Below are positions 3,542-45,168 of a stretch of 64,000 bases of DNA, piece after piece. Numbering within the stretch: the stretch's first letter is position 1; each line of letters opens with the position of its first letter. This stretch comes from Candidatus Omnitrophota bacterium. Lineage in GTDB: Bacteria; Omnitrophota; Gorgyraeia; Gygaellales; Profunditerraquicolaceae. A program made the translations under genes and the position numbers. The DNA is taken from positions 51,860-115,859 of the forward strand of contig JBAZLM010000004.1 of NCBI GenBank assembly GCA_041650295.1. Reading direction: 5' to 3'. Under the pieces are notes generated by a model. It was not told the DNA's origin and did not search any database. It saw only the letters and a program-made list of their open reading frames with translations.

Positions 3542-4522
3542 ATGAATTTATTATTAGCACGGGTTTTATTTATCTTAGGTAGTATGGCGATTGGTTATCA
3601 GACAGTGGTGATTAATAGTTCTGGTTTAATTGGTATGGTGATTGGCGCGGCAATCGCCTTGCTGATGATTATGGCCGAAGCAGGATTACGTAAAGTTTCA
3701 GTGAGTGGATTATCGAGTGCGGTTTTTGGCTTAATCTTAGGTTTAATCATGGCTAAGTTGGTGGGGGATGCTTTTAGTATCGCACCTATCGATGCGTTAA
3801 TCCTTTCTAGAATTAGGGTGGGATTAACTTTAATTTTTTGCTATCTGGGTATGGTTATGGCTTTGCGCGGCAAAGATGAATTTAATATTATTATTCCTTA
3901 TGTGCGCCTGCGTAGACAAGATCAGGCTCAAGACGTAGTACTTTTAGATACTAGTGTAATTATAGACGGAAGAATTGTTGATCTTTGTAAGACACGTTTT
4001 TTAAGCGGAAAAATTATTATTCCAAAATTTGTTTTACGTGAATTACAGCAGATTGCTGACTCTACCGATCCGATTAAGCGCCAGAGGGGCAGACGAGGAC
4101 TAGAGATTCTGAATAACATTCAAAATGAACCGGGTATGGATATTACAATTCATGAACAAGATTTTACTGAGACTAGTGAAGTGGATGCTAAGTTAGTGTT
4201 GTTAGCTAAATTATTAGAGGCTAAAATTTTGACGGTTGATTTTAATTTAAATCGAGTGGCTAGCATTCAGGGAATTAAAGTTTTAAATATTAATGAGTTG
4301 GCCAACGCCTTAAAGCCGGTAGTTTTTCCTGGCGAAGAGATGCAGATTAAGTTAATCAAAGAAGGGAAAGAACATAATCAGGCAGTAGGTTACCTTGATG
4401 ATGGTACGATGGTGGTAGTGGAAGATGCACGCAGATTAATTGGCCAAGATGTTAAAGTAGCGGTAACTTCTGTATTGCAAACTCAAGCTGGTAGAATGAT
4501 CTTTACTAAAGTTGAGAAATAA
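3542..4522 (+). CDS. Membrane-anchored PIN/TRAM domain protein (YacL-like)
   Basis: Four predicted N-terminal TM helices, a PIN-like segment ([12 protein letters not shown]) and a C-terminal TRAM-like beta domain. It sits downstream of radA, as yacL does in Firmicutes. Confidence 0.6.
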
Positions 4523-6361: not shown

Positions 6362-6364
6362 GGT

Positions 6365-7774
6365 TTGTCGCTCATGCCTATTTTTATATATAACTCTCTA
6401 ACCAGAAAAAAGGATAAGTTTGTACCTGTTTGTGGCCATCAGGTGAAGATGTATACCTGTGGCGTTACGGTTTATGATGCCTGCCATATTGGACACGCCC
6501 GTAGTTTGTTTATCTTTAATTTAATCCGCAGATATTTAAAGTACCGTGGTTTTAAAGTAAGCTTTGTGCGCAATATCACCGATATCGACGATAAGATAAT
6601 TAATCGGGCTAATGAACTTAAAATTGATTGGAAAGAATTAGTGGTTAAATATATCGCAAGCTACAATCAAGATTTAGAGTTTTTAGGTGTAGAAAAAGGA
6701 GATTTTGAACCGCGAGCTACAGAAAATATTGCCGAGATGATTGGATATATACAAGAGCTAATTAAAAAAGGTTTTGCTTATGCTTGCGCCGGGGATGTAT
6801 ATTTTGATGTGCGTAAATTTAAAGAGTATGGCAAGTTAAGCGGACAAAGTATTGACGCGATGCATAGCGGGGTGCGTATTGAGCTAGCCGAATCAAAAAA
6901 TGATCCGCTGGATTTTGCGCTTTGGAAACGTTCTAAAGAAAATGAACCTTTTTGGCCTAGTCCTTGGGGCAATGGCCGGCCGGGTTGGCATATTGAGTGC
7001 TCTGTGATGTCACAAAAGTTTTTAAAAACGCAGACTTTAGATATTCACGCCGGAGGAAGAGACTTAATTTTTCCGCATCATGAAAATGAATTAGCACAAA
7101 GCGAAGCTTACTCGGGAAAATTGTTTGCTAAATATTGGATGCATCATGGACTGTTAACGATTAATGGTCAGAAGATGTCCAAATCTTTAGGTAATTTTAT
7201 TACGATTAAAGATTTTATGACTAAATATCACAATGCAGAGTTACTCAAATTTTTCTTTTCCACTGCGCATTACAGTCACTCTATAGATTATAGTGATGCT
7301 AAGATTCAAGAGTCCAAACAGGCTTTAGGGAGAATTAATATATTTATGGAGAAGGCCAACTTAGTTAAGCCTGGATTTGTGGCCAAATTCTTAAAATTAC
7401 TGCCTAAAGAAGTGGCATTATTAAAAACTAAATTTATTGCTGCCCTGGATGATGATTTTAATACCCCGGAAGCTTTAGCTTGCATTTTTGAACTAGTAAA
7501 TTTGGGGAATAAAAATATAAATAATAAAAATTTTGTTTATAGTACCAAAAATATATTAAATGAGATGTTAGAAATTTTAGGTATTAGCCTTAAATCTGTA
7601 AAGATTGATTCAGGAATGAGCGAAGAAGAGATAAAATTAAAAATTCAGAGTAGAGTCGATGCTAAAAAATCTAAAAATTATGCGTTAGCTGATCAAATTA
7701 GAAAAGAGTTAGAAGATAAAGGAGTGATTTTAGAAGATACTAAAGACGGTCCAACTTGGCGTAGGAAATTGTAA
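6365..7774 (+). CDS. cysS: Cysteine--tRNA ligase
   Basis: Class I aaRS with a HIGH-type motif (CHIGHARS), KMSKS (QKMSKSLGN) and zinc-binding Cys/His. The true start may be the ATG at 6374. Confidence 0.9.
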   Translation: MSLMPIFIYNSLTRKKDKFVPVCGHQVKMYTCGVTVYDACHIGHARSLFIFNLIRRYLKYRGFKVSFVRNITDIDDKIINRANELKIDWKELVVKYIASYNQDLEFLGVEKGDFEPRATENIAEMIGYIQELIKKGFAYACAGDVYFDVRKFKEYGKLSGQSIDAMHSGVRIELAESKNDPLDFALWKRSKENEPFWPSPWGNGRPGWHIECSVMSQKFLKTQTLDIHAGGRDLIFPHHENELAQSEAYSGKLFAKYWMHHGLLTINGQKMSKSLGNFITIKDFMTKYHNAELLKFFFSTAHYSHSIDYSDAKIQESKQALGRINIFMEKANLVKPGFVAKFLKLLPKEVALLKTKFIAALDDDFNTPEALACIFELVNLGNKNINNKNFVYSTKNILNEMLEILGISLKSVKIDSGMSEEEIKLKIQSRVDAKKSKNYALADQIRKELEDKGVILEDTKDGPTWRRKL

Positions 7775-7949
7775 CGTCTGATTTGGCTTTGTTTCGGAGC
7801 GCACGTTAAGAATCTTGCGCGGGCACGGTTGCCCCTTAGAAATGTCTCGGCAGAGCGCAAGATTCTGCTCGAGCGCAGATTTTCCACGCTGGGGAAAATC
7901 AAGCGGTGCGCGGAGAAACAAGACAAAGCAGACGACAAAGAAAGTTGAT

Positions 7950-8558
7950 ATGAAAGGTAAATTCATAACATTTGAGGGATCTGAGGGCTGCGGTAAAAGT
8001 ACGCAGTCTAAGTTGCTTTTTGAGTATCTAAAATCAAAAGGTAAGCAGGTTATTTATCTACGCGAACCTGGTGGTGTTAAAGTTAGTGAGCTGATTCGCG
8101 AAATATTACTTAATCCTAAAAGCAAGATCCCTGCGGCGGCAGAAACTTTACTTTATATGGCCGCTCGAGCTTGCGTGGTTGAAGAGATTATTAAGCCAGC
8201 GCTTAATGCTGGTAAAATTGTGGTTTGCGACCGCTTTATAGACTCTACGGTTGCTTATCAGGGGTATGGTCTAGGTGTAGATATAAAATTAATTAAATTG
8301 ATTGGTAATTTTGCTACTCAAGGAATTGCTCCGGATTTAACCATCTTTTTAGATTTACCGGTAAAAAGTGGGCTCAAGCATCGCGATAATTGCAAAGATC
8401 GCATTGAACAGCGTTGCGTGGGTTATCATGAAAAAGTAAGAAAAGGGTATTTAGCGATTGCCAAAAGCCAGCCCAGAAGAATAAAAATTGTAAAAGTGCA
8501 AAAAGATAAACTTACCACTCAAAGAAATGTTCGGGAGATTGTTGATGGGCTTTGCTAA
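7950..8558 (+). CDS. tmk: Thymidylate kinase
   Basis: P-loop FEGSEGCGKST and DRF motif (VVCDRFIDST). The ORF-track start at 7815 runs into a GC-rich structured intergenic region, so I took the ATG at 7950 instead. Confidence 0.85.
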   Translation: MKGKFITFEGSEGCGKSTQSKLLFEYLKSKGKQVIYLREPGGVKVSELIREILLNPKSKIPAAAETLLYMAARACVVEEIIKPALNAGKIVVCDRFIDSTVAYQGYGLGVDIKLIKLIGNFATQGIAPDLTIFLDLPVKSGLKHRDNCKDRIEQRCVGYHEKVRKGYLAIAKSQPRRIKIVKVQKDKLTTQRNVREIVDGLC

Positions 8559-9504
8559 TATTTTAGGACAAGTTAAACCATTGAGTATCATTAATGCTTA
8601 TATAGAGGGATCGGCTTTTTCCGGAGGATTTATCTTTAGTGGTCCTGAAGGAATTGGTAAGTTAATGACAGCCAAAATTATTGCGCAGAAATTAAATTGT
8701 ACTAGTAGTACGGATAAGCCCTGTGGGATTTGTGAAGCTTGTATAAAAATGGAAAAATTAAATCATCCGGATTTGCATCTTATTCAAAATGGCGATGCTC
8801 AGATAAAAATTGAAGATATTCGCCTGATTTTGCGGGAAGCTAGTTTTCGGCCCTATGAAGGGCAGATGAAGGTTTTTATTATTGATAATGCGCACAAGCT
8901 TAATATTGAAGCGGCCAATTCGTTACTTAAAATACTAGAGGAGCCACCCAAGCAATCATTAATTATTTTAATTACACATAAACCTCAGAGTATTATTAAA
9001 ACAATCTTGAGTCGCTGTAAAGTAATAAGGTTTGCTCCTCTAGAGAGGAGTAGTTTACAAAATATATTAACTAAAAATTATTTTTTGGATGCCTCAAGCG
9101 CTCATTTTGTTGCTTATTATGCTGAAGGAAGACTGGGTTTAGCTTTACGTCTGAAAGATTCTTTACAGTTAATGGAAAAGAATAAAATATTTGATGCTTT
9201 TGTGCTTTCGCAGAAACCGCTGGATCGCTCTTTGGCGACTCAGAATAAAGAACAGCTACGTTCAACACTAAATATTTTAGCTGCCTGGTTTAGGGATTTA
9301 TATTTACTTAAAGCCGGTTGTAGTGAAAATGAAATAATTAATTTGGATCGCAAGAATGATTTATTAAAATTGATTCCTAAGTTTTCATTTAAACAGCTGG
9401 ATGATATTGTATCCAGTATTTCGGAGAGTATGTTGTATTTAGAGAAGAATATTAATAGTAAATTACTTTTGCATAACTTAGGAGCTCAATTATGGAAGGG
9501 ATGA
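8527..9504 (+). CDS. holB: DNA polymerase III subunit delta-prime
   Basis: AAA+ clamp-loader fold with a degenerate P-loop (GPEGIGKLM) and zinc module CGICEAC. It follows tmk as in many genomes. Confidence 0.7.
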   Translation: MFGRLLMGFANILGQVKPLSIINAYIEGSAFSGGFIFSGPEGIGKLMTAKIIAQKLNCTSSTDKPCGICEACIKMEKLNHPDLHLIQNGDAQIKIEDIRLILREASFRPYEGQMKVFIIDNAHKLNIEAANSLLKILEEPPKQSLIILITHKPQSIIKTILSRCKVIRFAPLERSSLQNILTKNYFLDASSAHFVAYYAEGRLGLALRLKDSLQLMEKNKIFDAFVLSQKPLDRSLATQNKEQLRSTLNILAAWFRDLYLLKAGCSENEIINLDRKNDLLKLIPKFSFKQLDDIVSSISESMLYLEKNINSKLLLHNLGAQLWKG

Positions 9505-13874: not shown

Positions 13875-16800
13875 ATGAAATTTAAGTCTTCAAAACTATT
13901 TAAAATCATTGCTTTGTTGATCTGTTTTGTGCTGTGCTTTGAGCAATCTGGCTTTGCGCAAATTGCCGCTCAACTGGATATCTCAGGCAAGTTATCTGGC
14001 TTGGTTAATTCCATCGCCCAGGACAAATTTCGCCCCCTACATCTGCGTTATCTTCAGTATGATACTAAACTCAATAACTTTAAGCTTCTTCTGGATAAGG
14101 GTAGCTCTAAAGAACTCTCTAAACCTTTTATCGAGCAATCCACTAAAACATTACTAAACTACTTCTTAGCCGGAGTCACTTTACCTAATGACACCTTTTG
14201 GGTAAACCTAAGACCGGATTCTCCAGATAACGTCATTGACCCAGCTTTAGCTCAAACCGACATCGGTCGCATTATGCTAGAAGCTGACGTCCAGCTTAAA
14301 AAAGATACGGCTAGCTTTACTTCTCCCAACACCCCAGAAGGCAAACAATACTGGGATAAGCTCTATACTAAAGCCGGAGAACTCTTTGGCTCTCAAAACA
14401 TCACTATCCCCACCTTAACCCGTCCCTGGATAGTCCCCAACGAGATCATCATCCGTGAGACTATTGATAACGCCTATATCTATAAAGCTACCCTAAAAGT
14501 CATGTTGGAAGATGATTACTTAAAAGAAGGTAAAGGTATCGGCACCGGTATAGATTACTCCTTCAAAGATGAAAAATTAAAACAACTCAACCAATACTCA
14601 TCTGAACTTATCCGCCAGTTAATCATTCCCAAACTAACCAAAGAGATCAACACCTCAAAACGCTACGCTAACCTGCGTCAGGTATACTACTCGTTAATCT
14701 TAGCCCAATGGTTTAAACAGAGATTTGCTAACAACTCTGGAGCTTATTCCAAACTAATCAACCAGAAAAACCTCACTAACCTAACCTCTAAAACCAGCTG
14801 GAGCAAGGATACTTACTTCCAGCAATACCAAAAGTCCTTTAAAGACGGGGAATACAATATCAAAACCCCGGTATCTACCCCTTACGGCCAGGTGATCAGG
14901 AGCTATTTTTCGGGAGGGATCAGGCCTATACCGCAAATTCCTGCTCCTGGAGAAGTATCGCAAGATGGTTTAGTTACTTCAGTAAAAGGGGGAGAATTAT
15001 TTGCAACGGTTACCGGAAGCGATAAGCTGGCAGGGGTTAGCATCGATGATGGAGTAGTAAAAACTACTGATCAGGCTCAGCCATCAAATGGATTTAAAAT
15101 AGAGGATCAAACTACCCCTCCAAAAGTTGAGAATGGTATCTCCGTTAGAAGAGTTGATCTATCCAAATTACCAGTAGGAACGATTATTAAATATAGAATT
15201 TCAAATGATAATTGGAATTATACCTTAAGAGTCGAAGCTAATGGAAGAGTTAGTATCTGGTTGAGGGAAGATCAAGGAAGAATAACCGCGTCGATTAAAG
15301 CTATTGGGAGCAGAGTTCCTTCACTTACCCCGGGCGATGCATATGATGCAGATTTTTTCGGAGAAATAGAACCTGGCGTATTAGCCTATCAGCCGTATTT
15401 TAATCAAACTGATATAGCTGGCAGCAAGGTGCGAGAATTAGTATCCATCGGTGATTATCCTATTCAAGCTACTCCGGAAGACATTATGGTCTATTTGCCT
15501 GATGGAAAAACTCAATTGCCTCGAGAAAAGCCACGGGCATTGCAAGATAAATTTAAGCGTAAAGTCAAAGAGCTAAATGAATTTATTGTTCATCATGGTA
15601 TTCCCGGAGAAAACCCGTTGGAGGCTAACGGATTTGAATTTTTGGTAAAAAGCGGGATAACTAAGGTGGAGATCTTGGCAGAGCGTTTAGGAATGGATAA
15701 GGATAGCCTTGAGGAGATTCTTAGCGCGGTTGAAGAGCAAAAAGGATGGGACATTATTGAAAAGACGATTGATACTTCGACGTTTAGTTTTGCTTTTGAA
15801 AAATTGGCAAAACTACAGGCCGAAAAGAATCTTTATCCAAAACCGCAAAAAACAATTAAGGAAAAGGCCTATGAATTTAAAGATAAAGTTATCAAATTTG
15901 TAAAAGATGAAACTGGCGCGTTGCAGCTAACAGGCTATCGCCAAGATAAAAAATTTAATCAAAAAATTGCAATGGATAAAAAGCTAGCAGGTTTTTATGC
16001 GATTGCGGAAGACCTACTTGAACAACTCCAAAAATTTCCAGATAAACAAGATCTAGTAATTGAGCTTATTGAAAATAAATTTAATGCATTAGTTAGGGAA
16101 TTTCCAAAACAACGCATAGAATTAAATAATGCTAAGAATGAACTTGTTAATGAGCTTGCTATTAATTTGTCATCTGGGCAGCAAGAAAGCATATATTTAC
16201 ACGGTTATTATGAGATTTTAAAAAATATTCTAAATAAATTAATCCCTTGGACGGATGATTTAAAAAAGAAAAACCCTGATTCAGAGTTTATTTTTGTGGC
16301 CAGAGATGCCGGATATATCTATTCGGTATTTAATGCTTTAGGAAAATTAGGTAAGGAGAAAGCCGAAGGATTTGTATATTATTTAAGCCGCGCTTCTATG
16401 TCTGAAGATTTAATTCGCAACGGTCCTTATGATACTGCAAGACGCATGATTAATCAAGCCCACTCAGATACAAAAACCGATAACATTAATGAGCTAACCG
16501 GAAATATTAGAAAAGAATTTAAAGATTATTTAGAACAGGACGATAGGTCTTTTTTGGATGAAACATCCCGTAAGGAATATTTAGAGTTTAAGAATATGGT
16601 GATTAAAGTTAATAGTGAGCTTAAAGCTTTAGGCTATGATCAATTGCAGAAACTAGTTTTGGTTGAGACAGGATTTAAAGGTACGATGCCGTTTTTGATA
16701 AAATTTATTTTAGATTTAGATAAAACGGATGAACAGTTAGCTAATGAAGCAAAAGAAAACGGTGGACAGGAAAATATTCAAGTCGCTATTTTAGAACCTA

Positions 16801-19800
16801 GGGATATTCCTGCTTTTACCGATGGTGTTTATGGCTTAACTGCAGAACAAGCTGAAACTGAGATGAATAAATTTGAAGATTTTTGGGGAGGTCAAGCAGT
16901 AGAAACTCCTGAGAGTGTGGTGGATCTCTTAGAAAAAGAAGATATCTCTCACCCGATAGAGTTTAACTTAATTGATTCAAGGGTAGAAAGAAATAGCAAT
17001 CCTGTTGAGTTGTTAAAATATTTTGTTAATCAGCTAGTAGTTGGGTTAGAAACAATTGAATATTATAAAAAAACTAGAAAGGTTGATGTTGAAAAGCCAG
17101 TGAATAAGTCCTTAGCACAGTTATCTCCTATTGCTGCGACTAAAATTATTGGCTCTGCGCTTGACAAAGGTAATAATTCTTTAGATGGACTGATTGCAGA
17201 AACCCCGGATTATACGGGAAAATTAGTTCAGTTGCAAAATCCCAAACAGATGAGCGCTGGAAATTTTGACGGTACTAGCCATCTGCAATTTACTGATGAT
17301 CCTCAGGGAAAAGCGGGGCAGGTTTGGTTATTTAAAGGTTATCCTCGGCAGAAATGGCATCGCGCTTTAGTTGATGAATTTGTTTATCATATAGCGGAAA
17401 AGCTTGGTTTAAAAAGTGCAATACCGGTTTTTGCCGGGCGGATTAAAAATGGATATATGACCGAGTTTGGAATGTTTATGCGCTGGGAGGAGAACATTGG
17501 TTCTTTGTATGAAGTTTATAGAGGTGATTTTATCCAAAAATTAAGTGAGAATAAAGAAAATCTTAAAACAGTTTTAAGGGAACAGGTCCTAGATTGGCTA
17601 GTTTCACAGCATGATTCCCATTCTCGGAATTTTCTTATTGCTGACGATAAAGACAAAAGTCTTATTCCGATTGATTTTTCACAGGCATTTAAGTTTTTAG
17701 GCAAAGATGAGCTTTCGCTTGATTACAATCCTAATGGTGATGTTAATGGCTACAATAATGTTGCCTACATGCCGATCTATAATCTTATTTATCAAGCAAT
17801 AATTAATAAAGAGATTGATTTTACCCTAACTGAGGCCTGGGAAGTTGTGCAGGAGGTGTTAGAGCGCGTAGAAGAAATGGATACTGATGAATATATTCAG
17901 GCTTTAAAACCTTATGCTGAATTTAGATTTAAAATAATGAAGGATGCTAGTTGGAGTATTAGAAATAGCGATGAATTTTTAAAGTTAGCCCGGGAAAGAA
18001 AAGTTAATATGCGTAAAGATTTCGAAAAGTTTTATAAAAAGCTCGGTTTTTCTAGTGAGACTGATTATCGTTTTAGTTTGCTGGAAATCATGGAGAACCC
18101 CCTCCAAGAGAAGCAAGAATTTTATGTCGATCAATTTAATGCGCTCTGGATTTTTAATGAAAATCAAGATTTGGCTACCAAACCTTATAAGTCTTTAGCG
18201 GCAAAAACTTATCATCAATTTATGGGAAAAGTTTTAGATCGCAATAGTATCGTTTTAGAAACAACTTTTAAAGCTAAAGATGGTCGCATTCGCACTGGAA
18301 CGATGCAAAAAGTTTTTTATCAGGAGCCCTCAGCCAATAAACAATTAAAAGAATTGAATCTTGCGGATTTCAGAGATTGGAGCCAAAACCGGGTATCTAT
18401 AAAATTTTGGGGGCTGGAACCGCCAAAGATTAAGCAAGTTTTGGAAGAGATGGTGATTGATTGGTTATTTTCTAATTACAGCAGTACCGAATCAACCTGG
18501 TTTGAACATGGGTACGCTAAATTCTATTTAATTTGTTTAGATGATAAATCGGATTCTTTTAAAGATTTTCCCAATGACAGGCTTGAGGCGAAAAAGGATT
18601 CTGATGATAAAATAAAACCACCTTTTGCTTACAATTTAGTTAAATATTTAGCTCTCCAAAATCGTCTTTCTATGGATCTGATTGAAGAAATATTGAAAAA
18701 AATTGAAAGTATTCCGGATAACGAAGTTGAAGAACTAATTCGTCCGCTAGCCAAAAGTTATGTTGCTACTAACCCTGATAAGTTTAAGCGTCCGGAAGAT
18801 TTTATAAAAGCATTTTTATCTAGAAAAGACAATTTACGTAAGGATTTTAAAGAATTTTTTCATCAAAATTATTTATTAAATACACCGTTTAATTCTCAAG
18901 TACAAACTCATCAGGCGATGACAGATAAATATATTATTTCCTCAGATCTCTATCAACAGATACATAATGCCCGAGGTGATCAAACCGCGATTATTAAGCT
19001 AATTAACCAACGTTTTAATGAATTAGCCGAAAATTTATCCTGGGAGGAAGTGGAACCTCTAGCGCAAAAAAAGGAAGAGCTGATTATCCGGATCACTGGA
19101 CCGCCAGTTTTAACGAATCAAGATGTACAAATGGATTTACAAACTAATCCTATTGTGCGAGATCGGAAGTTTAAAGCTATGTCTAGACTGTTGGCTTCTT
19201 GGGTTTATTCTTTAAGAGAGCAAAAACCTGATTATTATCTGATTGGTTTAGCCCGTGACGGAGGATATATTCCTTTAATTGATCAATTATTTAATTATGC
19301 TGGAATAATTCCTAAAACTGGCTCTAGTGTTTATCATTTGAGCTGCCCCCGGATGTCAGGAGAGACGCAAAAGAAAATTTATAGCATGATGTATGAAATT
19401 ATTGCAAATGCATTAAAAAATGTTGAGCATAATGATATCCAAGGTTTATATGCGCAAATTCGTTTAGGATTTAATAAAGCAATGGCTGAGAATTCAAGTT
19501 TTTTAGTGATGGTTACAGAAATTCGGAAAGAATTGATAGGGCTTGGATTTGATCAAAAAAATAAAATTGTCATTACGGATACTGGATTTTTTGGAACAAT
19601 TGCTTTCTATATCAAATGTATTTTAGATATGGATAAAAGCCAAGCAAGATTGGAACAAGAATTAGTGGATAATCATGGTCATGAAAATATTGAAGTTGCC
19701 ATTTTACAACCTAGCAGTATAGAAAGTTTTAACAAAAGTTTATTTGGTTTTGATACAACGAGACTTACTCAAGATGATCAGGCTATCGCCAGAAAGTTAG

Positions 19801-22400
19801 AAACAATTTTTGGTTTGCGCAATGTTTTAGGAAATGAATTTGAGAGCAATAAAATTATGCATCCGGTAAAATTTAATGAAGACAATTGGCTGATCGAAGA
19901 TACTGATGCCAGCTCACAATTGGAATTATTTTACCAGCAGATCATGATTGCTCAAATGGTGGATGCATTTATTGCTAGAGAGGGGATTGATTACCCGGGG
20001 CAAGATACTTTGGCTGGTTTTGGTGGCATTGATTTAGACGAAAAGATTGCCGCCCAGGCATTTTTTGATCAACCGGATAATGGTGAGTTAAAAGTTATTA
20101 TTGACCGTTGGTTTAAAGAGTTAATCGCTAAAGATGGATATGTAGCATTTAAGAAATTATATGATGCTTGCGGCCGGTTAAGCTTTATTAAATTATTGCG
20201 TTTAAAATTTCCCCTGCTTTCCACTAACATAATTTTGACCCCGAATCAAGAATTTAAAAGACAATCTCTGTTGGTGCAGTATCTACTTAAACGACAAGGT
20301 ATTCTAACCAGCAGTGTCCCGGTAGCTAGAAAAAAAGACCCAAAGAGCTTACCTTTTGAAGCGGATAAAAAATTCAGTGGTGTGTTATTGGATGTTGATG
20401 GCACAATTACCATGCCCGGCGGAGAGATATCTGATGCGATCATCGAAAAAGTTGAGGAAATGATTACCCGTGGAAACAAGGTAGGAATAGTTACTGGCAG
20501 AAGAGCGCTATCCCCGGATGTTTTTGAGGAGGTAATTAAATTAAAGGTTAACCGACAGGCGTTAAATAATCTTTACATTTTTACCCAGGATGGGGCTCAA
20601 GGTTATAGTGTAGGTGATACTAATCTGCGATGGGAATTTAAAACCGGTTTAAATGAACGAAAAAAGATTTTAAAGAAGTTGGAGCGAAGCGAATTGGTTA
20701 AGTTCCATTGCCAAATTATTCCTGAATCAGCAAAATTAATTTTTAAAATGGATAATCATGACGATACGGACGATTTAATTTTAACTTTAAAGATTGCTTT
20801 AGTTGATTTAGGTTTGGATGCTAAATATTCTGTGGTGGATGCCGGGGCAAATGTGCATTTAATCGCTAGTCAAGCGGACAAAGGAGCGGCAGCCAAAAAA
20901 TTTAGCAATGTAACCGGTTTAGCTCAAGAAAATATATTAAAAATTGGAGACAACTATAATTTGGATGGCAATGATTATCCAATGTTGGCTTTGCCCGGAG
21001 GGGTGGGAGTCAATGATAGCGAGACTACGCTTTGGTTGCTAGATACCTATTTTAAAAATACTGTATTGACCCCAAATATACAATTATTTGCACTTACCGA
21101 TGAGGGGACTGATCCTTTAAGTAATTCTCTGCATTTTGTTAACAATAAAGACATTACGAGTGTAATTTTACCCAAAAACAAATTCGCTGCTTCGGTGGAC
21201 ATGTTAAAAGTGTTTGAAGAATCTTTGCAATACGAATTAGGTAAAGTTCCGCTTTTTTCTATTTTCGGTTCACTTTCTTATGCGCGTGATAAAGAAGGTA
21301 ATATTATTTGGGATACGATCGGTGATTTTGATATTAAGCTTTATACTGAAGAATTATTATGGAATGATGATATCACAGAGATAAAACTTAACTTTTTAAA
21401 TGCTCTTAAAAATCTGGGAATAAAAGTGGATATTCAGGGTAGTGATTCTCCATCTGGATCAGGGCGTGATCTGAGTTCATTAAACTGGGGTATTCTGGAC
21501 AAGCAGGGCAAAAAATATATAGTACATATTATTAATTTTAGAACTAAAGATCTACTTTCTAAAAATGACGCTTTTGTAAATATCCGCAGTAATTTATTTT
21601 ATGGAGATACGCAAGCTTTAAATAATGCGTTGAACATTGTTGGCATTGAAACGGCGGTTGAACAAGCTGCGGTTAGCTGCGAAAAAACGATCTCAATTAT
21701 AAGCAATGCGATAGCTAAAGTAGAAAATATTCGGTCAGAGAATGTGAAACTATTAAAGAGATTATACCAAATTGCTTATGTACAAGGTCGAGAAGCTGAT
21801 TTTTATTGGCTTTTAGAAAAATACCGGAAATTAAGTTTAGAATTTAATCAACAGGATTTAGCTGACGCTTGTAATGAGGGAATCTCTAAACTTATTATGA
21901 ATCCTGAAGAATTACGTGCACTGTTACGTGATAGACTTAAAGCAAATATTAAATTAGTTGATAGTAAATCTATGGCTACTGTTGCGATTCCTGGCGCCGC
22001 ATCGGATAAAGGTGGCGTTGACTTTCGCGGTCTGCCAATTGGCATCCAAAGTCAAAGGATGATTGGCGCATCAGCAGTATTGATTCCGTCTCCAAGGTTA
22101 GATCAAGAGTGGAGCCAGATTGAGCGCATGCTTAACCAAGGAATTATCCCTTCTATTGAAAGGCTGAAAGATTATCTCTCTTTATCTTGTAAGGGCGCAG
22201 ATTGTTCGGCTAGAGTTGATCAAACCTTAAGCGGAATTGCCAATATTCTTAGAATTGAAGAAGAGAGCTTAACCCCCACTGATGCAGCTTTAAAACAACT
22301 GTTAATTTTACTGGAATCTAATCAACCGGCGAATCAATTACAGTTAGCTTTAACCAAAATTCAAGCATCAGAAAAGATGCCGGAGTTAGCTATTCATTAA
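13875..22400 (+). CDS. Giant secreted multidomain protein (2841 aa) with a signal peptide, two paralogous internal domains, a PI3K/PI4K-like atypical kinase motif set, a HAD-superfamily phosphatase domain and a possible nucleotidyltransferase-like segment
   Basis: Single uninterrupted 8526-nt ORF. The N-terminus has a signal peptide (MKFKSSKLFKIIALLICFVLCFEQSGFAQ). The clearest domain is HAD, with motif I LLDVDGTIT, motif II S/T (VGIVTGR), motif III K (DKGAAAKKF) and motif IV GDNYNLDGNDYPML. A kinase-like region has WLFKG, a DSHSRN catalytic loop and IDFS. GS...DFD suggests an NTase fold. Paralogous segments share ARDAGY/ARDGGY and TGF(K/F)GT motifs. Confidence 0.85.
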   Translation: MKFKSSKLFKIIALLICFVLCFEQSGFAQIAAQLDISGKLSGLVNSIAQDKFRPLHLRYLQYDTKLNNFKLLLDKGSSKELSKPFIEQSTKTLLNYFLAGVTLPNDTFWVNLRPDSPDNVIDPALAQTDIGRIMLEADVQLKKDTASFTSPNTPEGKQYWDKLYTKAGELFGSQNITIPTLTRPWIVPNEIIIRETIDNAYIYKATLKVMLEDDYLKEGKGIGTGIDYSFKDEKLKQLNQYSSELIRQLIIPKLTKEINTSKRYANLRQVYYSLILAQWFKQRFANNSGAYSKLINQKNLTNLTSKTSWSKDTYFQQYQKSFKDGEYNIKTPVSTPYGQVIRSYFSGGIRPIPQIPAPGEVSQDGLVTSVKGGELFATVTGSDKLAGVSIDDGVVKTTDQAQPSNGFKIEDQTTPPKVENGISVRRVDLSKLPVGTIIKYRISNDNWNYTLRVEANGRVSIWLREDQGRITASIKAIGSRVPSLTPGDAYDADFFGEIEPGVLAYQPYFNQTDIAGSKVRELVSIGDYPIQATPEDIMVYLPDGKTQLPREKPRALQDKFKRKVKELNEFIVHHGIPGENPLEANGFEFLVKSGITKVEILAERLGMDKDSLEEILSAVEEQKGWDIIEKTIDTSTFSFAFEKLAKLQAEKNLYPKPQKTIKEKAYEFKDKVIKFVKDETGALQLTGYRQDKKFNQKIAMDKKLAGFYAIAEDLLEQLQKFPDKQDLVIELIENKFNALVREFPKQRIELNNAKNELVNELAINLSSGQQESIYLHGYYEILKNILNKLIPWTDDLKKKNPDSEFIFVARDAGYIYSVFNALGKLGKEKAEGFVYYLSRASMSEDLIRNGPYDTARRMINQAHSDTKTDNINELTGNIRKEFKDYLEQDDRSFLDETSRKEYLEFKNMVIKVNSELKALGYDQLQKLVLVETGFKGTMPFLIKFILDLDKTDEQLANEAKENGGQENIQVAILEPRDIPAFTDGVYGLTAEQAETEMNKFEDFWGGQAVETPESVVDLLEKEDISHPIEFNLIDSRVERNSNPVELLKYFVNQLVVGLETIEYYKKTRKVDVEKPVNKSLAQLSPIAATKIIGSALDKGNNSLDGLIAETPDYTGKLVQLQNPKQMSAGNFDGTSHLQFTDDPQGKAGQVWLFKGYPRQKWHRALVDEFVYHIAEKLGLKSAIPVFAGRIKNGYMTEFGMFMRWEENIGSLYEVYRGDFIQKLSENKENLKTVLREQVLDWLVSQHDSHSRNFLIADDKDKSLIPIDFSQAFKFLGKDELSLDYNPNGDVNGYNNVAYMPIYNLIYQAIINKEIDFTLTEAWEVVQEVLERVEEMDTDEYIQALKPYAEFRFKIMKDASWSIRNSDEFLKLARERKVNMRKDFEKFYKKLGFSSETDYRFSLLEIMENPLQEKQEFYVDQFNALWIFNENQDLATKPYKSLAAKTYHQFMGKVLDRNSIVLETTFKAKDGRIRTGTMQKVFYQEPSANKQLKELNLADFRDWSQNRVSIKFWGLEPPKIKQVLEEMVIDWLFSNYSSTESTWFEHGYAKFYLICLDDKSDSFKDFPNDRLEAKKDSDDKIKPPFAYNLVKYLALQNRLSMDLIEEILKKIESIPDNEVEELIRPLAKSYVATNPDKFKRPEDFIKAFLSRKDNLRKDFKEFFHQNYLLNTPFNSQVQTHQAMTDKYIISSDLYQQIHNARGDQTAIIKLINQRFNELAENLSWEEVEPLAQKKEELIIRITGPPVLTNQDVQMDLQTNPIVRDRKFKAMSRLLASWVYSLREQKPDYYLIGLARDGGYIPLIDQLFNYAGIIPKTGSSVYHLSCPRMSGETQKKIYSMMYEIIANALKNVEHNDIQGLYAQIRLGFNKAMAENSSFLVMVTEIRKELIGLGFDQKNKIVITDTGFFGTIAFYIKCILDMDKSQARLEQELVDNHGHENIEVAILQPSSIESFNKSLFGFDTTRLTQDDQAIARKLETIFGLRNVLGNEFESNKIMHPVKFNEDNWLIEDTDASSQLELFYQQIMIAQMVDAFIAREGIDYPGQDTLAGFGGIDLDEKIAAQAFFDQPDNGELKVIIDRWFKELIAKDGYVAFKKLYDACGRLSFIKLLRLKFPLLSTNIILTPNQEFKRQSLLVQYLLKRQGILTSSVPVARKKDPKSLPFEADKKFSGVLLDVDGTITMPGGEISDAIIEKVEEMITRGNKVGIVTGRRALSPDVFEEVIKLKVNRQALNNLYIFTQDGAQGYSVGDTNLRWEFKTGLNERKKILKKLERSELVKFHCQIIPESAKLIFKMDNHDDTDDLILTLKIALVDLGLDAKYSVVDAGANVHLIASQADKGAAAKKFSNVTGLAQENILKIGDNYNLDGNDYPMLALPGGVGVNDSETTLWLLDTYFKNTVLTPNIQLFALTDEGTDPLSNSLHFVNNKDITSVILPKNKFAASVDMLKVFEESLQYELGKVPLFSIFGSLSYARDKEGNIIWDTIGDFDIKLYTEELLWNDDITEIKLNFLNALKNLGIKVDIQGSDSPSGSGRDLSSLNWGILDKQGKKYIVHIINFRTKDLLSKNDAFVNIRSNLFYGDTQALNNALNIVGIETAVEQAAVSCEKTISIISNAIAKVENIRSENVKLLKRLYQIAYVQGREADFYWLLEKYRKLSLEFNQQDLADACNEGISKLIMNPEELRALLRDRLKANIKLVDSKSMATVAIPGAASDKGGVDFRGLPIGIQSQRMIGASAVLIPSPRLDQEWSQIERMLNQGIIPSIERLKDYLSLSCKGADCSARVDQTLSGIANILRIEEESLTPTDAALKQLLILLESNQPANQLQLALTKIQASEKMPELAIH

Positions 22401-26794: not shown

Positions 26795-27891
26795 GGTAGT
26801 TTTGAAATTAAGTAAAGACTAGTGGATAAAACCACGATGTGGCTCAGGCAAGCAGCTAAAGAGGGCATTAAGAGGCCAGATTTTCCAATGGCTAGAAATA
26901 TTGCATCTAAAACATAATAAAAAAATCCTACCACAATAGAAACTCCAATTGCTGACATCCCGGTAGCACGTTTACGCATCATTAAAGAAAAAGGGATCCC
27001 TAATAAAATAATGATGATACTAGTAAATGGCGAGCAGAAGCGTTGATAAAGATCTACTTTTAAATTACGCACAATTCCGGTGGCCCCGCTTTTCGAGAGT
27101 CTCCAGATATAATCTTCCAATTGGTGAATATCCATCTGTTCCGGTTTTTGGCGCAGACTGGCCATAATTTTGGGAGTCTCCGGTATATCCATTATTTCTT
27201 CATCCAGATAAAGCGGCTCGTCAATAACTTGTCCGTTTTGGTCAAAGCCATAAGTAATGCTTTGGTAAAATCTCCAAAGTCCGTCTTTATAAACGCCTTT
27301 GGTAGCAATTATTTTTTTAACGATATTTTGATGTCGATCGTGTTCTAATATGGTAATGCCTTCCATGGTATTTGTTTCTGGTGAGAATCGATTAATAAAA
27401 AATAATCTATTTTTTAAGCCATACATGGATAAGTTAGTAATTGCTTGACCAAGCTTAAGTCTGTTTTTTGCAGAGCCTTGTTCGATTTGCACTTTTATTT
27501 TTTGATTTTCTGCTAAAGATGAAGGAACAAATCGATCACCTACCCAAAAAACGGCAAAGCTGATCACTAGGCCAAAGATCAAAGCATTACGCGCAATTTC
27601 ATAGATACTTAGCCCGCTTGAACGCATAGCAATGATTTCGTTATTGTGATTAAGCCGTCCAAATGTATAAACGGTGCTTAAAAGACAAGCAAAGGGAGAG
27701 ACCTGCACAAACATTACCGGTAGATATGATAAATAATAGCGGATTAAAAGGACCAGGGTAGTTTTGTGCCTGATTACTTCGTCAAGATTGGAAAGTAGAT
27801 CAATAACCACATAAAGAAATAAAAAAAGAAAGATACAGGATAAGAATATTAAAAGTATTGATTTGAGGATATAGCGATCTAAGATGCGCAT
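26791..27891 (-). CDS. lptG: LPS export ABC permease of the LptF/LptG (YjgP/YjgQ) family, probably LptG
   Basis: Six-TM YjgP/YjgQ architecture with a periplasmic beta-jellyroll insert. It is the second gene of a tandem pair on the minus strand. Confidence 0.7.
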   Translation of the reverse strand: MRILDRYILKSILLIFLSCIFLFLFLYVVIDLLSNLDEVIRHKTTLVLLIRYYLSYLPVMFVQVSPFACLLSTVYTFGRLNHNNEIIAMRSSGLSIYEIARNALIFGLVISFAVFWVGDRFVPSSLAENQKIKVQIEQGSAKNRLKLGQAITNLSMYGLKNRLFFINRFSPETNTMEGITILEHDRHQNIVKKIIATKGVYKDGLWRFYQSITYGFDQNGQVIDEPLYLDEEIMDIPETPKIMASLRQKPEQMDIHQLEDYIWRLSKSGATGIVRNLKVDLYQRFCSPFTSIIIILLGIPFSLMMRKRATGMSAIGVSIVVGFFYYVLDAIFLAIGKSGLLMPSLAACLSHIVVLSTSLYLISKLP

Positions 27892-28982
27892 AATTTATAA
27901 GTTAAGACTCCGCCGACACTGGTAAATAAAATATTAGGTATCCAAAGCGCTAAAGCCGCTGGCAACGCTCCTTCCATGGCTAGGGCCACAAAGCCAATAT
28001 ATAGCGGATAATAGCAGACGATAATTAAGACTGCGATTCCGATATTAATAGATTTTTCGCGTCTGCGGGTAATAATTCCTAACGAAGAACCTAAAAGCAT
28101 AAATACAAAACAACTAAAAGCTAGCGCCAGTTTTTCATGGATTTTGGTAATTAAAGGGGCAGGAGTTATTCCTTCACTTTTGAGTTTTTTTGCCTCTTTT
28201 TTCAATTCTTTGATAGTCATCTCTTTATATTTTTTATCAACGATCTTATTTTGCATCTGCGCCATATCTAAATTCATAAAATAAGTGCGGAAATTAAGTT
28301 TATAAAAATTTGTGGGATTTTCTGGGTCCGGTTCGTCACTGGTACCGTCAATAAGTTTTAATTTAATGGAATTTTTATCTGGGATAGTAATAAATTCTCC
28401 AGCTTTGGCAATAATCGTGCGGGTAGGCCTATCTTCTCCCTGAGGTTCATAGATGCGGATGTTATTAAGTCGGTTTTTTTTCTGGTCTACATTGTAAATA
28501 AAAAGAATATATTTTTGAAATGAATCAATAAAAACTCCCTCTTCAAATGCGGCGGTAGGATTTTTGATCCCCATCTCTTGTAAAACTTTGCGATAAGCAA
28601 AATGAGAGTATGAAGCTGCTTGATCATTAAATACAGCTAAGCCCATACTTAAAACTAGACCAATCATTAATAAGGGTAAAATTAATCTAAATAAGTTTAC
28701 ACCACTTGATCTAATAGCGATTATTTCATTATCTCCCGAAAGCCTGCCAAAAGCTAGTAAGATGGCGACCAAAATTGATATTGGTAGAGTATAAGTAACG
28801 ATATAGGGAGTTAAATAAAGAAAAATTTGTACAACGCTAAAAAAATCCACTCCTTTATTAATAACTAAGTCAGCGATACGTTTTAAATTACCAATTAAGA
28901 CCATTAAAAAAGTGAGAGTTCCTAGGCAAAGTAGGAGTGGGCCGATAAATTCTCTTAAGATGTAATTGCGCAGTATCTTCAT
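27879..28982 (-). CDS. lptF: LPS export ABC permease of the LptF/LptG family, probably LptF
   Basis: Paralogue of the downstream gene with the same YjgP/YjgQ topology. It is first in the pair. Confidence 0.7.
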   Translation of the reverse strand: MKILRNYILREFIGPLLLCLGTLTFLMVLIGNLKRIADLVINKGVDFFSVVQIFLYLTPYIVTYTLPISILVAILLAFGRLSGDNEIIAIRSSGVNLFRLILPLLMIGLVLSMGLAVFNDQAASYSHFAYRKVLQEMGIKNPTAAFEEGVFIDSFQKYILFIYNVDQKKNRLNNIRIYEPQGEDRPTRTIIAKAGEFITIPDKNSIKLKLIDGTSDEPDPENPTNFYKLNFRTYFMNLDMAQMQNKIVDKKYKEMTIKELKKEAKKLKSEGITPAPLITKIHEKLALAFSCFVFMLLGSSLGIITRRREKSINIGIAVLIIVCYYPLYIGFVALAMEGALPAALALWIPNILFTSVGGVLTYKLCAS

Positions 28983-29075
28983 AGTTGAGTATCCTGTCCC
29001 GCCTCAAATTATTCGGCGGGATAACTTCGCACAAATAACTTACGTTCACCGCTGTTGCGTAAGTTATGCGCTTAG

Positions 29076-31682: not shown

Positions 31683-31901
31683 CGGATTCTATCTTGGATA
31701 TTACCAAATCACCTGTTACGCTTTATAAATTTTACCTTTCGCTTCCGGCGCTCAAACTTTTCGCCGTGTGCTGCGGCTTACGTCTCGCTACGGCTTTCTT
31801 CCTTACGCTAGATGGACACCGCCTTCGCTCGACGTAATTCCTTGCACACCGTTGGCGAAAACTTTGAACGCGCCTCCAGCAAAAGGTAAAATATAATTAA
31901 G

Positions 31902-34567: not shown

Positions 34568-35524
34568 GTGTTTTTAGAGCATTTTAAGATTACTACTTTA
34601 GCCATGGCTCAGATATTTATTTTGGGAGCTTTGGGTTATATTTTAGTGAAGAAAAATATACTTTCGCATACGGGTTTGGATGCTTTGAGTCGCTTAGTCA
34701 TCCAGATTGTTTTTCCAGCGTTAATTATCACTCAGTTATTGCATAATTTCAGTTTTACTCTGTATCCGAACTGGTGGATCTTTCCGGTAATTAGCATACT
34801 GATTACTGCGGTTAGTTTAGCTTTAGGAATACTTTTACTCAAGTTTATAAAATTAAAGAATAATAAACTACAGTTTTTAAGCTTAGTGGGTTTTCAAAAT
34901 TCTGGATATCTACCGTTAGCTTTGGCGGCGGCGATTTTTTCTGGTCAGGATTTAAGTAACATTTTTATTTAAATATTTTTATTTTTATTAGGTTTTGATC
35001 TGGTCGCTTGGTCGTTGGGGATATATCTGTTAACTTATGAAAAAGAGTCTAGGTTTAAGTTGCAGCATATTTTCAGTCCCCCGGTAATTGCTAGCTTGTC
35101 TACTTTGATTTTTATTGCTCTTGGATTAAATAAAATTGTTCCTAGCGTTTTATTTAAGCCCGTAGAGATGATCGGAAATTGTACTTTGCCTTTAGCATTA
35201 ATGGTTGTAGGGGGGAATATTGCTTTAGTTGAGTTAAAGAATATCAATAAGAAGGTTTTATCTGTTTTTCTTTTCGGCAAATTAATTATTCTGCCGGCAT
35301 TAGGTTTATGGATAGTACTTAAATTGGCGCTGCCGCAGTTATTTGGCTTCTTAATTATCATGCAATTGGCGATGCCTTCGGCTACTTCTTTATCGGTAAT
35401 TGTGCGCCGTTATAATCGAGAAGATGCTTTAATTAGTCAGGGAATATTTTTTAGCCATATTATTAGTTTAATTACTATTCCGCTATTTTTAGGTTTATAT
35501 TTATCGCTGGTTGTGCTAAAATGA
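34568..35524 (+). pseudogene. AEC (auxin efflux carrier/MleP-like) family permease interrupted by one in-frame TAA at 34970-34972
   Basis: ORFs 34568..34972 and 35015..35524 are in the same frame. Translation across the TAA is continuous membrane protein (...LSNIFI*IFLFLLGFDLVAWSLGIYLL...). Combined length of about 318 aa is typical of AEC transporters. Confidence 0.6.
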
Positions 35525-35973
35525 GTAAATCGATTATCACCAATCGCAAGGCTTACCGGGATTATGAAGTATTAGAGGCTTTTGAGTGCGGAATTGAACT
35601 TAAAGGCTCAGAGGTAAAGTCTTTACGCGACGGTAAAATTAATTTAGATGACAGTTTTGCCCGTGCAGAACAAGATGAGTTATTTTTGTATAATGCACAT
35701 ATAAGTCCTTATGCACAGGCTAGTTATTTAAATGTTGAGCCAAATCGACCACGTAAGTTGCTTTTACATAAGGGGCAGATTTTAAGGGTTATTGGTAAGC
35801 TTACCCAAAAAGGTTTAGCCTTAATTCCTTTAAAACTTTATTTTAATGACCGAGGTTTTGTAAAAGTAGAATTAGCGTTGGGTAAAGGTAAAAAACTTTA
35901 CGATAAACGAGTAACGATTAAGCGCAGAGAAACTGATCTTGAAATGCGCCGGGCAATAAAGAATAGAAGGTGA
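35521..35973 (+). CDS. smpB: SsrA-binding protein SmpB
   Basis: SmpB N-terminal motif NRKAYRDYEVLE...GIELKGSEVKS and a basic C-terminal tail. Immediately upstream of tmRNA. Confidence 0.9.
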   Translation: MSKSIITNRKAYRDYEVLEAFECGIELKGSEVKSLRDGKINLDDSFARAEQDELFLYNAHISPYAQASYLNVEPNRPRKLLLHKGQILRVIGKLTQKGLALIPLKLYFNDRGFVKVELALGKGKKLYDKRVTIKRRETDLEMRRAIKNRR

Positions 35974-35979
35974 TTTTTT

Positions 35980-36381
35980 GGGGGTGAAAGGGTTCGACTT
36001 GAGATGGTCGGATAAGAGTAGCATGCCGCGGATGTAAGGTTAGCCGCGTTAAAAATCCTTGCACAATCTAAACGCAAACACAAACGTGTTCAACCGTTTA
36101 GCACCAAAGGCAGCAATGCCTTTGATGCCTGCGGGCGTACAAGCCTTAGCGTTTAATTAAACGTTAAGCCTCTAGCCGTTTTTGCCTACGAAACGGATTA
36201 GGGCCTTAGTAGGATAGCTTCGTCAGGTTAGCCTTTGTGGATGAAGCGAGATTTTAAAGGCTGCTCCTTGCAAATCCTGTCTGTAGAAGTTGCAAGGTTA
36301 AGACAAATTACAAGGCTAAGCATGTAGTGACTTTTATTTGATTACTTAAGGACCCCGGTTCAATTCCGGGCACCTCCACCA
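35980..36381 (+). ncRNA. ssrA: tmRNA (ssrA)
   Basis: The 5' GGGGGUG pairs with the 3' CACCUCC including the G3:U wobble. The 3' tRNA-like domain is GGACCCCGGUUCAAUUCCGGGCACCUCCACCA with encoded CCA. It lies 7 nt after the smpB stop. An internal ORF-like tag frame runs 36074-36160. Confidence 0.85.
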
Positions 36382-36403
36382 TCCTGTACTGTGTACAGGA
36401 TTT
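36382..36403 (+). terminator. Hairpin immediately after the tmRNA 3' end
   Basis: TCCTGTAC-TGT-GTACAGGA perfect 8-bp stem followed by TTTCG. Confidence 0.4.
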
Positions 36404-36529
36404 CGCTGGTAGAAAATTGTTGTGCTCAAAATTTACGACAAGTAAATTTTTGGTGGATGTCGCAACGAGCGTGGCGAGGCGACAAGCCGAGCAGCGAGTG
36501 CGACGCCACACAAATATCAACACATACTT

Positions 36530-44873: not shown

Positions 44874-44881
44874 TTTTATTT

Positions 44882-45046: not shown

Positions 45047-45055
45047 TTAATTTAT

Positions 45056-45133: not shown

Positions 45134-45168
45134 GTTTTTTAGCTTGTTTTTATTTAAAGGAGATAGTG

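Follow-up and report, generated by a model that had tools for sequence, protein, structure and literature searches.

We argue that positions 7775-7934 of the window (the whole 64,000-nt stretch of DNA analysed, from a Candidatus Omnitrophota genome) hold an A-type copy of a low-copy, dispersed family of GC-rich branched-hairpin insertions, similar to the ERIC and Correia elements and found in one Omnitrophota clade. We hold this reading with a little better than even confidence. The related B-type is dispersed, and for the family as a whole we infer the same. The element is an addition, absent from Rfam, to the known small structured intergenic repeat elements. It is neither 6S-like nor an attenuator, the roles that an earlier note on this DNA had suggested for it. 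There is a non-negligible chance that it represents a new functional RNA class.

The fold and its conservation

The genes in the window are packed head to tail on the + strand. The TAA stop codon of cysS is at 7772-7774, the ATG of tmk is at 7950, and holB comes directly after tmk and overlaps it. The loci closest to the window are Omnitrophota MAGs as well. The earlier note treated the entire 175-nt cysS-tmk spacer, 7775-7949, as one structured RNA candidate. This extent is correct through 7934, but the last 15 nt are the ribosome-binding spacer of tmk and lie outside the fold. The sequence 3' of P1 in the window element is ACAAAGAAAG, and in homologues a UAAGGA sits 1-3 nt past P1. The spacer was also described as GC-rich in an AT-rich genome, and it is. 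GC is 0.50-0.55 in the element (52% over 7775-7934) against 0.37 in the whole window (37%), and the 3' portion of cysS beside it has 0.19-0.38. When 120-nt windows were screened for high GC together with strong folding, 4 segments of the 64 kb stood out. One is the cysS-tmk element, and the rest are the tmRNA, a stretch at 43141-43350 with hairpins and tRNA-Pro, and a further structured spacer.

Features of the cysS-tmk element, its flanking genes and its B-type relative in the window
Feature	Positions	Strand	Basis or remark
cysS	6365-7774	+	upstream cistron; Pfam tRNA-synt_1e, 1.4e-129
P1 5' strand (CGUCUG)	7775-7780	+	MFE fold; partner CAGACG 7929-7934
P1b 5' strand: A, UUUG, G (next base C)	7781-7787	+	MFE fold
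P2 5' strand (UUUGUUUC)	7788-7795	+	MFE fold
GGA/GGA symmetric internal loop, 5' half	7796-7798	+	MFE fold
P3 5' strand (GCGCAC)	7799-7804	+	MFE fold; partner GTGCGC 7906-7911
Arm P4	7809-7866	+	MFE fold: 12-bp stem, inner hairpin and 7835-7854
Arm P5 hairpin (GAUUUUCC-ACGCUG-GGGAAAAUC)	7878-7900	+	MFE fold
3' strands: P3 7906-7911, GGA loop 7912-7914, P2 7915-7922, A, P1b 7924-7927, G, P1 7929-7934	7906-7934	+	MFE fold
Ribosome-binding spacer of tmk, purine-rich (ACAAAGAAAGUUGAU)	7935-7949	+	outside fold; precedes ATG at 7950
tmk	7950-8558	+	downstream cistron; Pfam Thymidylate_kin, 4.4e-43
Second family member, B-type	31730-31891	-	BLAST 82% identity over 171 nt to L078 spacer; covariance model 170 bits, E 2e-44

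The + strand folds with a minimum free energy (MFE) of -71.2 kcal/mol; its 200 shuffles average -52.4 (z -4.5), and none of them is as good. The - strand reaches -67.7 kcal/mol (z -5.9). The overall fold is a three-way branch with only 4 nt unpaired on the 5' side of the junction. The outer, middle and inner stems that the earlier note drew by hand are all in the MFE fold, as P1, P3 and P4. P1 begins immediately 3' of the cysS stop codon. P1b is a short helix between two purine-purine mismatches (A7 with G, and G12 with A), and P2 pairs TTTGTTTC at 7788-7795 with GAAACAAG at 7915-7922. The perfect 12-bp stem of P4 pairs AGAATCTTGCGC (7809-7820) with GCGCAAGATTCT (7855-7866). It encloses the hairpin GGGCA-CGGU-UGCCC (7821-7834) and a conserved, mostly unpaired stretch at 7835-7854. 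The palindrome pointed out earlier, GCTCGAGC, is indeed present at 7868-7875, but it is largely unpaired in this fold. One extra helix was absent from the earlier list, the P5 hairpin GATTTTCC...GGGAAAATC.

The element is 96% identical to that of locus L043 (over 125 nt), 90% to L080 (157 nt) and 89% to L001. The flanking cysS and tmk DNA of the same loci is 69-77% identical. A 50-nt identity profile peaks exactly over the element and drops on either side, which means the excess conservation is the element's own and not that of a recombined block. The element evolves more slowly than the adjacent essential genes.

Covariation in homologous spacers had been proposed as a check on the structure, and it supports the helices. 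In an alignment of four A-type sequences, from which the tested structure was itself derived, 14 of the 47 consensus pairs have double changes and 89% of cells are paired, a result equalled by none of 500 shuffles. Slid registers of this alignment drop to 33-48% paired. The same can be followed helix by helix. P1 is GCGGG/CCCGC, GGUUG/CAGCC or GCGU/ACGC in homologues. P2 covaries across them as CUUGGAC/GUCCAAG, CUGUCAA/UUGACAG and CACGGCG/CGCCGUG, and P3 is GCGGGG/CCCCGC in L049, GCAGGG/CCCUGC in L011 and GGUGC/GCACC in L003. For the short forms the P1-P3 covariation was read by eye and not formally counted, since their MAFFT alignment is not structure-consistent. P4 has a compensatory change from C-G to U-A in L001 and L080 and additional changes in L049. 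The P5 stem is GUUUUGAC/GUCAAAAC in L049 and an 11-bp stem of different sequence in L001, with double changes in 4 of 7 pairs.

What stays the same while the P2 and P3 sequences are rebuilt is a set of irregularities: a purine-purine mismatch beside P2, a GGA bulge (or A-G mismatch) near the foot, and a GGA/GGA or GA/GA loop. The GGA/GGA loop is kept in both A-type and B-type copies, and L003 and L004 have GA/GA. The GG-CUUG / CAAG-AC motif with a G-A mismatch is also present in L001, L003, L011, L043, L044, L046, L047, L049 and L080.

Most copies fold better on their own sense strand than on the antisense. The values are -71.2 vs -67.7 kcal/mol for the window A copy, -78.0 vs -61.1 for L001 A, -100.9 vs -86.6 for L004, -84.7 vs -69.1 for window B and -64.6 vs -59.2 for L001 B. 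The ratio of G-U to A-C pairs is 7:0 in B and 8:4 in A, a count that is biased by how the structures were derived. Two of the B copies are inverted, so that their favoured strand is antisense to the surrounding genes, and no promoter-like site for the favoured strand was found at the 31.7-kb copy. This implies that the folded strand is a property of the element and not of host transcription.

The earlier note saw no plausible ORF here, and we agree. Six-frame translations of 4 homologues have no frame that is open throughout the set, and the indels do not fit a coding sequence. The minus-strand ORFs (78-81 aa) are genuine open frames, yet they are not conserved in homologues; they are open solely through base composition.

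An Rfam scan had been proposed too, and no family matched. There was no match at E<=10 in 7000-8700 of the window (1.7 kb), 6S models (RF00013 and related) included, none for the element at the gathering threshold across the whole window, and the cysS-tmk spacers of 11 homologous loci gave nothing at E<=5. The permissive searches returned chance-level microRNA and IRES matches elsewhere only. Neither a sigma-70-like promoter site on the + strand nor a hairpin-plus-U terminator was found at the element. Canonical hairpin-plus-U terminators do exist in the clade, for example in the L077 spacer. With no Rfam match, no promoter or terminator signals and no conserved frame, there is no support for 6S RNA, an intrinsic attenuator or a small protein. 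The fold itself also disagrees with 6S RNA. It is a three-way branch with no large central bubble, and its homologues range in size from hairpins of ~60-70 nt to ~270 nt. An attenuator or riboswitch leader for tmk-holB fares no better. The + strand has neither a U-tract nor a terminator-like site, and the ribosome-binding site is outside the fold with no alternative pairing to it. The hammerhead and twister ribozymes, SRP RNA, Y RNA, the K-turn, retron ncRNA and group II intron domain V were considered as well and rejected, as their conserved motifs are missing.

Gain, loss and nesting of structured spacers

To sample the relatives, CysS was used to scan genomes once and metagenomes once, and contigs were looked up with Tmk homologues. 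The cysS-tmk order is shared by about 35 distinct Omnitrophota loci, and a structured GC-rich element is found at this junction in 15 further distinct Omnitrophota sequences. In those 15 its 5' end is 0-20 nt past the cysS stop. The 3' end mostly comes 1-3 nt before a ribosome-binding site of the UAAGGA type; a few, L003 among them, have a longer tail. All copies at the cysS-tmk junction are in sense orientation. Long three-way forms like the window's are found in L043, L080 and L001, and more distantly in L049. Plain hairpins of ~60-95 nt are found in L044, L003/L005, L082-85, L086/87, L016/57, L011 and L002. L047, L046, L004 and L078/79 have large forms of 210-270 nt.

The element is missing from about half of the relatives that share this gene order. 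In 11 distinct relatives the junction is spacer-free, with stop and start overlapping or no more than 14 nt apart, and in 5 the spacer is short and unstructured. These junctions, together with the differing interiors of the elements, are why we reject a conserved leader of tmk-holB. Decayed remnants are present in 2 loci, L053 and L065 (= L088). Of all the relatives L088 has the CysS nearest to the window's (85% amino-acid identity), and it retains only the 3' tail of a B-type copy. Other junctions hold genes. The insert in L077 has a Transposase_20 (IS110-family) fragment, a DUF1016 gene, a holin-like gene (Phage_holin_4_2) and patatin genes; the one in L081 has two DNA methyltransferases, CBAH and a holin-like gene; L092 has a DUF559 gene. 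Halves of the hairpin do not flank the L077 and L081 islands. The element is dispensable at cysS-tmk.

The B-type is defined by the large cysS-tmk element of L078, and L047, L046 and L004 have B-type relatives at the same junction. The window has its own B-type copy near 31.7 kb, between a gene for an HI0933-like flavoprotein and a maf-M48 fusion gene, where it is inverted relative to the flanking genes. The cysE-cysS spacer of L001 has another inverted B-type copy, 77% identical to the L078 element. The four best copies come from three junctions, and their alignment, which again supplied the structure that was tested, has 46 pairs with 95% of cells paired and 17 double changes, a level that none of 500 shuffles reached. 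The B-type is therefore placed at three different junctions, in two of them inverted; the A-type was found at cysS-tmk only. Exact-seed repeats, BLAST and regular expressions found no further A-type copy in the window or in ~760 kb of loci, and a high-copy repeat was rejected on this basis. Copy number is low for the B-type too, with two unbiased extra copies in ~430 kb. A viral origin was also considered and rejected: two pattern scans of viral contigs gave only chance matches, and no BLAST relative was found in 721 kb of returned loci.

Filled and empty sites can be compared between close relatives. The window's 219-nt spacer at 31683-31901, which holds the B copy, is reduced to 6 nt in L165, whose flanking HI0933-like flavoprotein is 90% identical. 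L165 also does not have the 93-nt hairpin spacer that the window has at 28983-29075. The cysE-cysS junction is 3 nt in the window (6362-6364) versus ~290 nt in L001. Structured spacers must therefore have been gained or lost between close relatives. The cysS-tmk junction itself has a presence/absence difference, since it is filled in L078 and has a remnant in L088. The phylogeny of the element thus departs from that of its flanking genes, because within the lineage of the window B is found in L078, a B remnant in L088 and A in the window itself.

A covariance model built from B-type copies only ranks the B copies and their reverse strands first and the A-type elements next, with exact end-to-end boundaries. 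It finds the L080 element at E 0.047 and the window's 7783-7927 at E 0.17 in 427 kb, or 2e-4 in 501 nt. The portion that aligns between A and B is the base, which consists of the closing stem, the GGA/GGA loop, the G/C stem and a GUUAA linker. The interiors differ. Judged by this weak model score and the common architecture, the A-type and B-type appear to be related. The forms can also be nested. In L047 a B-type module at 3955-4125 is within an outer shell that is common to L049, and L049 has an A-like interior. In both L047 and L046 the B module has its own GGCUUUGG...CAAAGAC foot inside the outer shell.

Competing explanations and a possible role

In the most probable scenario, the tiny spacers between co-directional housekeeping genes gain and lose elements of this family, which are also nested and exchanged there. 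Every form would be built on a common base module, with a closing stem rich in A/U, either purine-purine mismatches or a GGA bulge, a symmetric GGA/GGA (or GA/GA) loop and a 5-6-bp G/C stem, and the apical part would be variable or replaceable. No promoter-like or terminator-like signals belong to the element itself, which makes transcription within the cysS-tmk-holB message most probable. The closing stem would then bring the stop codon of cysS and the ribosome-binding site of tmk to opposite feet of a single hairpin. Any role for the host is probably that of an intercistronic mRNA hairpin, as has been reported for ERIC, Correia/NEMIS and REP, palindromic repeats that are co-transcribed. It could be that of an mRNA stability or processing element or of a translation uncoupler. 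Candidate effects are protection of the cysS 3' end, protection of the tmk 5' end, and the uncoupling of genes that overlap in relatives without the element. Selection on a single-strand fold may equally serve the propagation of the element itself.

This scenario has to be weighed against others. The conservation is above that of essential genes even in the loops and unpaired stretches, and this exceeds what a passive spacer or a simple RNase target needs. The A-type is seen at one locus, copy number is low, and no mobilising gene, defined termini or significant duplication were found. Together with the high conservation this leaves some probability to a functional RNA, to a cis-regulator and to a folded-DNA site. 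One can imagine A and B as paralogous genes that encode a new trans-acting structured RNA, protein-binding or catalytic, which is processed from the operon transcript or made from unrecognised promoters of its own, with the short forms as decayed pseudogenes. The strong covariation, the constraint on loops as well as stems and the conserved purine-rich internal loops would all fit such a gene. So would the presence of two related copies at different loci of one genome, each favouring its own sense strand whatever the orientation of its neighbours. GC-rich islands in AT-rich genomes are also typical of RNA genes, and the window's others include tmRNA and tRNAs. However, neither copy has promoter-like or terminator-like signals, close relatives do without the element or have it in decay, L077, L081 and L092 have accessory genes in its place, and interiors are swapped inside one shell. 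We consider this reading unlikely, but credible enough to be kept in mind. More doubtful is a version where A and B are paralogous genes of an undescribed RNA class that could be protein-binding, catalytic, or the RNA component or guide of a mobile system; there the GGA/GGA base module would be the functional core, and the RNA would be under stronger constraint than the essential genes next to it.

A dedicated cis-regulator of tmk-holB, as the earlier note had envisaged, is improbable. It could be a site through which a protein (such as a CsrA-like binder of the GGA motifs beside the ribosome-binding site) or a ligand controls tmk translation, or an RNase III-type processing signal selected for this operon. 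Its appeal is the fixed position: every copy at cysS-tmk is in sense orientation, in most homologues the stop codon is at the 5' foot and only 1-3 nt separate the 3' foot from the ribosome-binding site (the gap is longer in a few, L003 among them), and the GGA loop and a CAGGAC bulge are conserved near the UAAGGA ribosome-binding site. Yet window-type copies do not have the CAGGA bulge, and the fold offers neither a terminator nor an alternative pairing with the ribosome-binding site. The roughly half of same-order relatives without the element have cysS and tmk translationally coupled by overlap. Interiors that are swapped or nested, and relatives that are inverted and antisense at unrelated junctions, speak against a regulator of these two genes. 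We regard as very improbable a site that acts as folded single-stranded DNA in recombination or insertion (attC-like, CTX-attP-like, or the target of a hairpin-seeking insertion sequence), with cysS-tmk as a hot spot. An attC site is in general an imperfect hairpin with mismatches or bulges near the base and a variable tip. The element has this design, with its mismatches and bulges conserved; there are nested insertions, and the accessory genes at cysS-tmk in L077, L081 and L092 would fit. What speaks against it is that the L077 and L081 islands are not flanked by hairpin halves and that the annotated gene neighbourhoods have no integrase or cassette array. An integron attC site in particular is rejected, as no form has RYYYAAC...GTTRRRY boxes at its feet and the neighbours are housekeeping genes.

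Omnitrophota are uncultivated, and no descriptions of non-coding RNAs or repeats for them were found in the literature searched. The element is missing from Rfam, yet it is conserved above the essential genes around it. If it belongs to a hairpin insertion family, as we favour, then it shows how genomes that are very compact, with genes that overlap, can tolerate structured insertions and may exploit them, and the element marks junctions that serve as insertion hot spots. If it is a functional RNA, each genome would have two paralogues of a new RNA class. Under either reading, a family description can start from the alignments and the covariance model.

Likeness to known small repeats

Small palindromic repeats are 100-200 bp long and have transcripts that form long stem-loops (PMC2229807). 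The Omnitrophota element is of this size, its predicted folds are long stable stem-loops, and it has filled and empty sites between close relatives. The ERIC/IRU elements of enterobacteria (127-bp imperfect palindromes) are alike in several ways. They belong to the same 100-200-nt class, are confined to intergenic spacers, fold as RNA into a long stem-loop, and can be in either orientation, which is seen here for the B-type. They are present or absent by site between relatives, and internal insertions or deletions give them long and short forms. ERIC is co-transcribed with its flanking genes and has an orientation-dependent effect on the stability of their mRNA (PMC2229807); co-transcription of the Omnitrophota element is a prediction. 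There is no sequence relation between the two, and the Omnitrophota element has a far lower apparent copy number. It also differs in its branched three-way fold, in its conserved GGA/GGA loops and in being GC-rich in an AT-rich genome. Unlike ERIC, the A-type is seen at one locus only, and the family shows no clear TA termini or target duplications.

REP/BIME units and REPINs are GC-rich extragenic palindromes in operons that can shield upstream mRNA from 3' exonucleases and are mobilised by RAYT transposases. REP units are 20-40 nt and highly repeated, whereas the Omnitrophota element is 160 nt, branched and low-copy, and no RAYT gene was seen among the window ORFs scanned with Pfam. RNase III sites of the phage T7 R1.1 type are irregular hairpins with an internal loop between cistrons, and they leave a 3' hairpin on the upstream message. 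For the putative mRNA role of the element they are a mechanistic analogy, and there is no homology. 6S RNA is similar in length (~160-180 nt) and in having its 5' and 3' ends paired in a long closing stem. The element departs from it in having no Rfam match and no large central bubble, in being dispensable, and in its relatives being hairpins of ~60-70 nt. Correia elements are present in hundreds of copies. The Correia/NEMIS elements of Neisseria are small palindromic intergenic insertions; their hairpins, once transcribed, are proposed to be substrates of RNase III and to modulate the genes nearby (PMC2229807; PMC2649163). Correia elements are further marked by terminal inverted repeats of 24 bp, TA duplications, IHF sites and ends that generate promoters (PMC2229807; PMC2649163). 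The general habit is alike, and RNase III action has been proposed for NEMIS RNA (PMC2229807). The terminal repeats, TA duplications, IHF sites, promoter ends and high copy number were not found in the Omnitrophota element.

The outer stems of the Omnitrophota elements may act as inverted termini. L078 and L001 share the 3' end CATAAAATTAAA, and the 5' ends are near-complementary and A/T-rich. No transposase was found among the 27 window ORFs scanned with Pfam (under half of the ORFs of at least 100 aa), and no other mobilising gene was found near the element. In the relatives, the transposase-related genes seen are a Y1_Tnp gene of L080, which is ~10 kb downstream of tmk, and the Transposase_20 fragment of L077; neither was linked to the element. 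To look for flank duplications, the final 20 nt of cysS were set against the 30 nt upstream of the tmk ATG at 14 filled sites. Only L086 (AAAGTTATAG / AAGGTTATAG) reaches p ~0.04, and a target-site duplication is individually non-significant at the rest. It must be noted that a weak resemblance between the flanks recurs, which may merely reflect re-creation of the ribosome-binding site.

The cysS-tmk and cysE-cysS junctions in relatives

In three of the other Omnitrophota loci (L077, L081 and L092) there are accessory genes between cysS and tmk. The inserts include an IS110-type transposase fragment, DUF1016, patatin, two DNA methyltransferases, CBAH, a Phage_holin_4_2-family gene and DUF559. 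By its behaviour in relatives, this junction behaves as an insertion hot spot. The cysE-cysS junction is occupied in several relatives by cruciform-like spacers of ~130-190 nt. Those of L086, L080 and L046 are near-palindromes and AT-rich. The spacer in L082 is a long hairpin that is more GC-rich than these three, and it carries a GACUUGG...CAAGACAGA motif similar to the foot of the cysS-tmk hairpins.

Structured elements at other sites in the window

There is a second structured element in the window. It is of the B-type, which is related to the A-type hairpin between cysS and tmk, and shares 82% identity with the spacer that L078 has at its cysS-tmk junction. Its orientation is inverted relative to the flanking genes, HI0933-like and maf-M48. 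The corresponding site is empty in L165, a close relative in which the HI0933-like protein next to the site has 90% identity to that of the window. L165 also does without the 93-nt two-hairpin spacer that lies between the lptF/G-like and ComF-like genes; there the two genes abut. Elsewhere, the tmRNA gene (Rfam match, 173 bits) comes immediately after smpB, and next to it on the far side is a structured GC-rich stretch of 148 nt.

Positions of the features discussed
Feature	Locus	Positions	Strand
Accessory genes, cysS-tmk	L077	6109-10000	
Accessory genes, cysS-tmk	L081	5736-10000	
Accessory genes, cysS-tmk	L092	1493-2000	
cysE-cysS spacer	L086	8267-8417	
cysE-cysS spacer	L080	8285-8413	
cysE-cysS spacer	L046	2189-2334	
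cysE-cysS spacer	L082	8276-8462	
ORF of 2841 aa	window	13875-22400	
lptF/G-like gene	window	27879-28982	
Two-hairpin spacer	window	28983-29075	
Spacer containing the B-type copy	window	31683-31901	
B-type copy	window	31730-31891	minus
smpB-tmRNA region	window	35521-36529	
tmRNA gene	window	35980-36381	
Structured GC-rich stretch	window	36382-36529	
GGGGCGTGCCCC units	window	43181-43279	
tRNA-Arg 3'-end region	window	43429-43634	
tRNA-Arg 3'-end copies	window	43429, 43515, 43608	
CTTGCTCGCTGCGCTCGCAAG units	window	43466, 43558	
tRNA-His region	window	44876-45073	
tRNA-His copies	window	44876-44908, 45041-45073	
59-nt piece	L015	3116-3174	
ORF with TNFR_c6-like repeats	window	45091-45897	
147-nt tandem repeats	window	45303-45743	

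Repeats at tRNA genes and other ORFs

The last 27 nt of tRNA-Arg are present in three copies, and a GC hairpin unit, CTTGCTCGCTGCGCTCGCAAG, is repeated between them (repeat families D4 and D6). The pattern suggests that the 3' end of this tRNA gene has undergone repeated insertion or duplication. In the tRNA-His region, the initial 33 nt occur twice, with 94% identity between the copies. Between them lies a structured, GC-rich insert of ~130 nt, and 59 nt of this insert are found again in L015. Just upstream of tRNA-Pro there are two hairpin units, GGGGCGTGCCCC (repeat family D8), whose fold was computed.

The window also has a single ORF of 2841 aa. Another of its ORFs has TNFR_c6-like repeats rich in cysteine, and within it are three 147-nt tandem repeats that are 78-84% identical.
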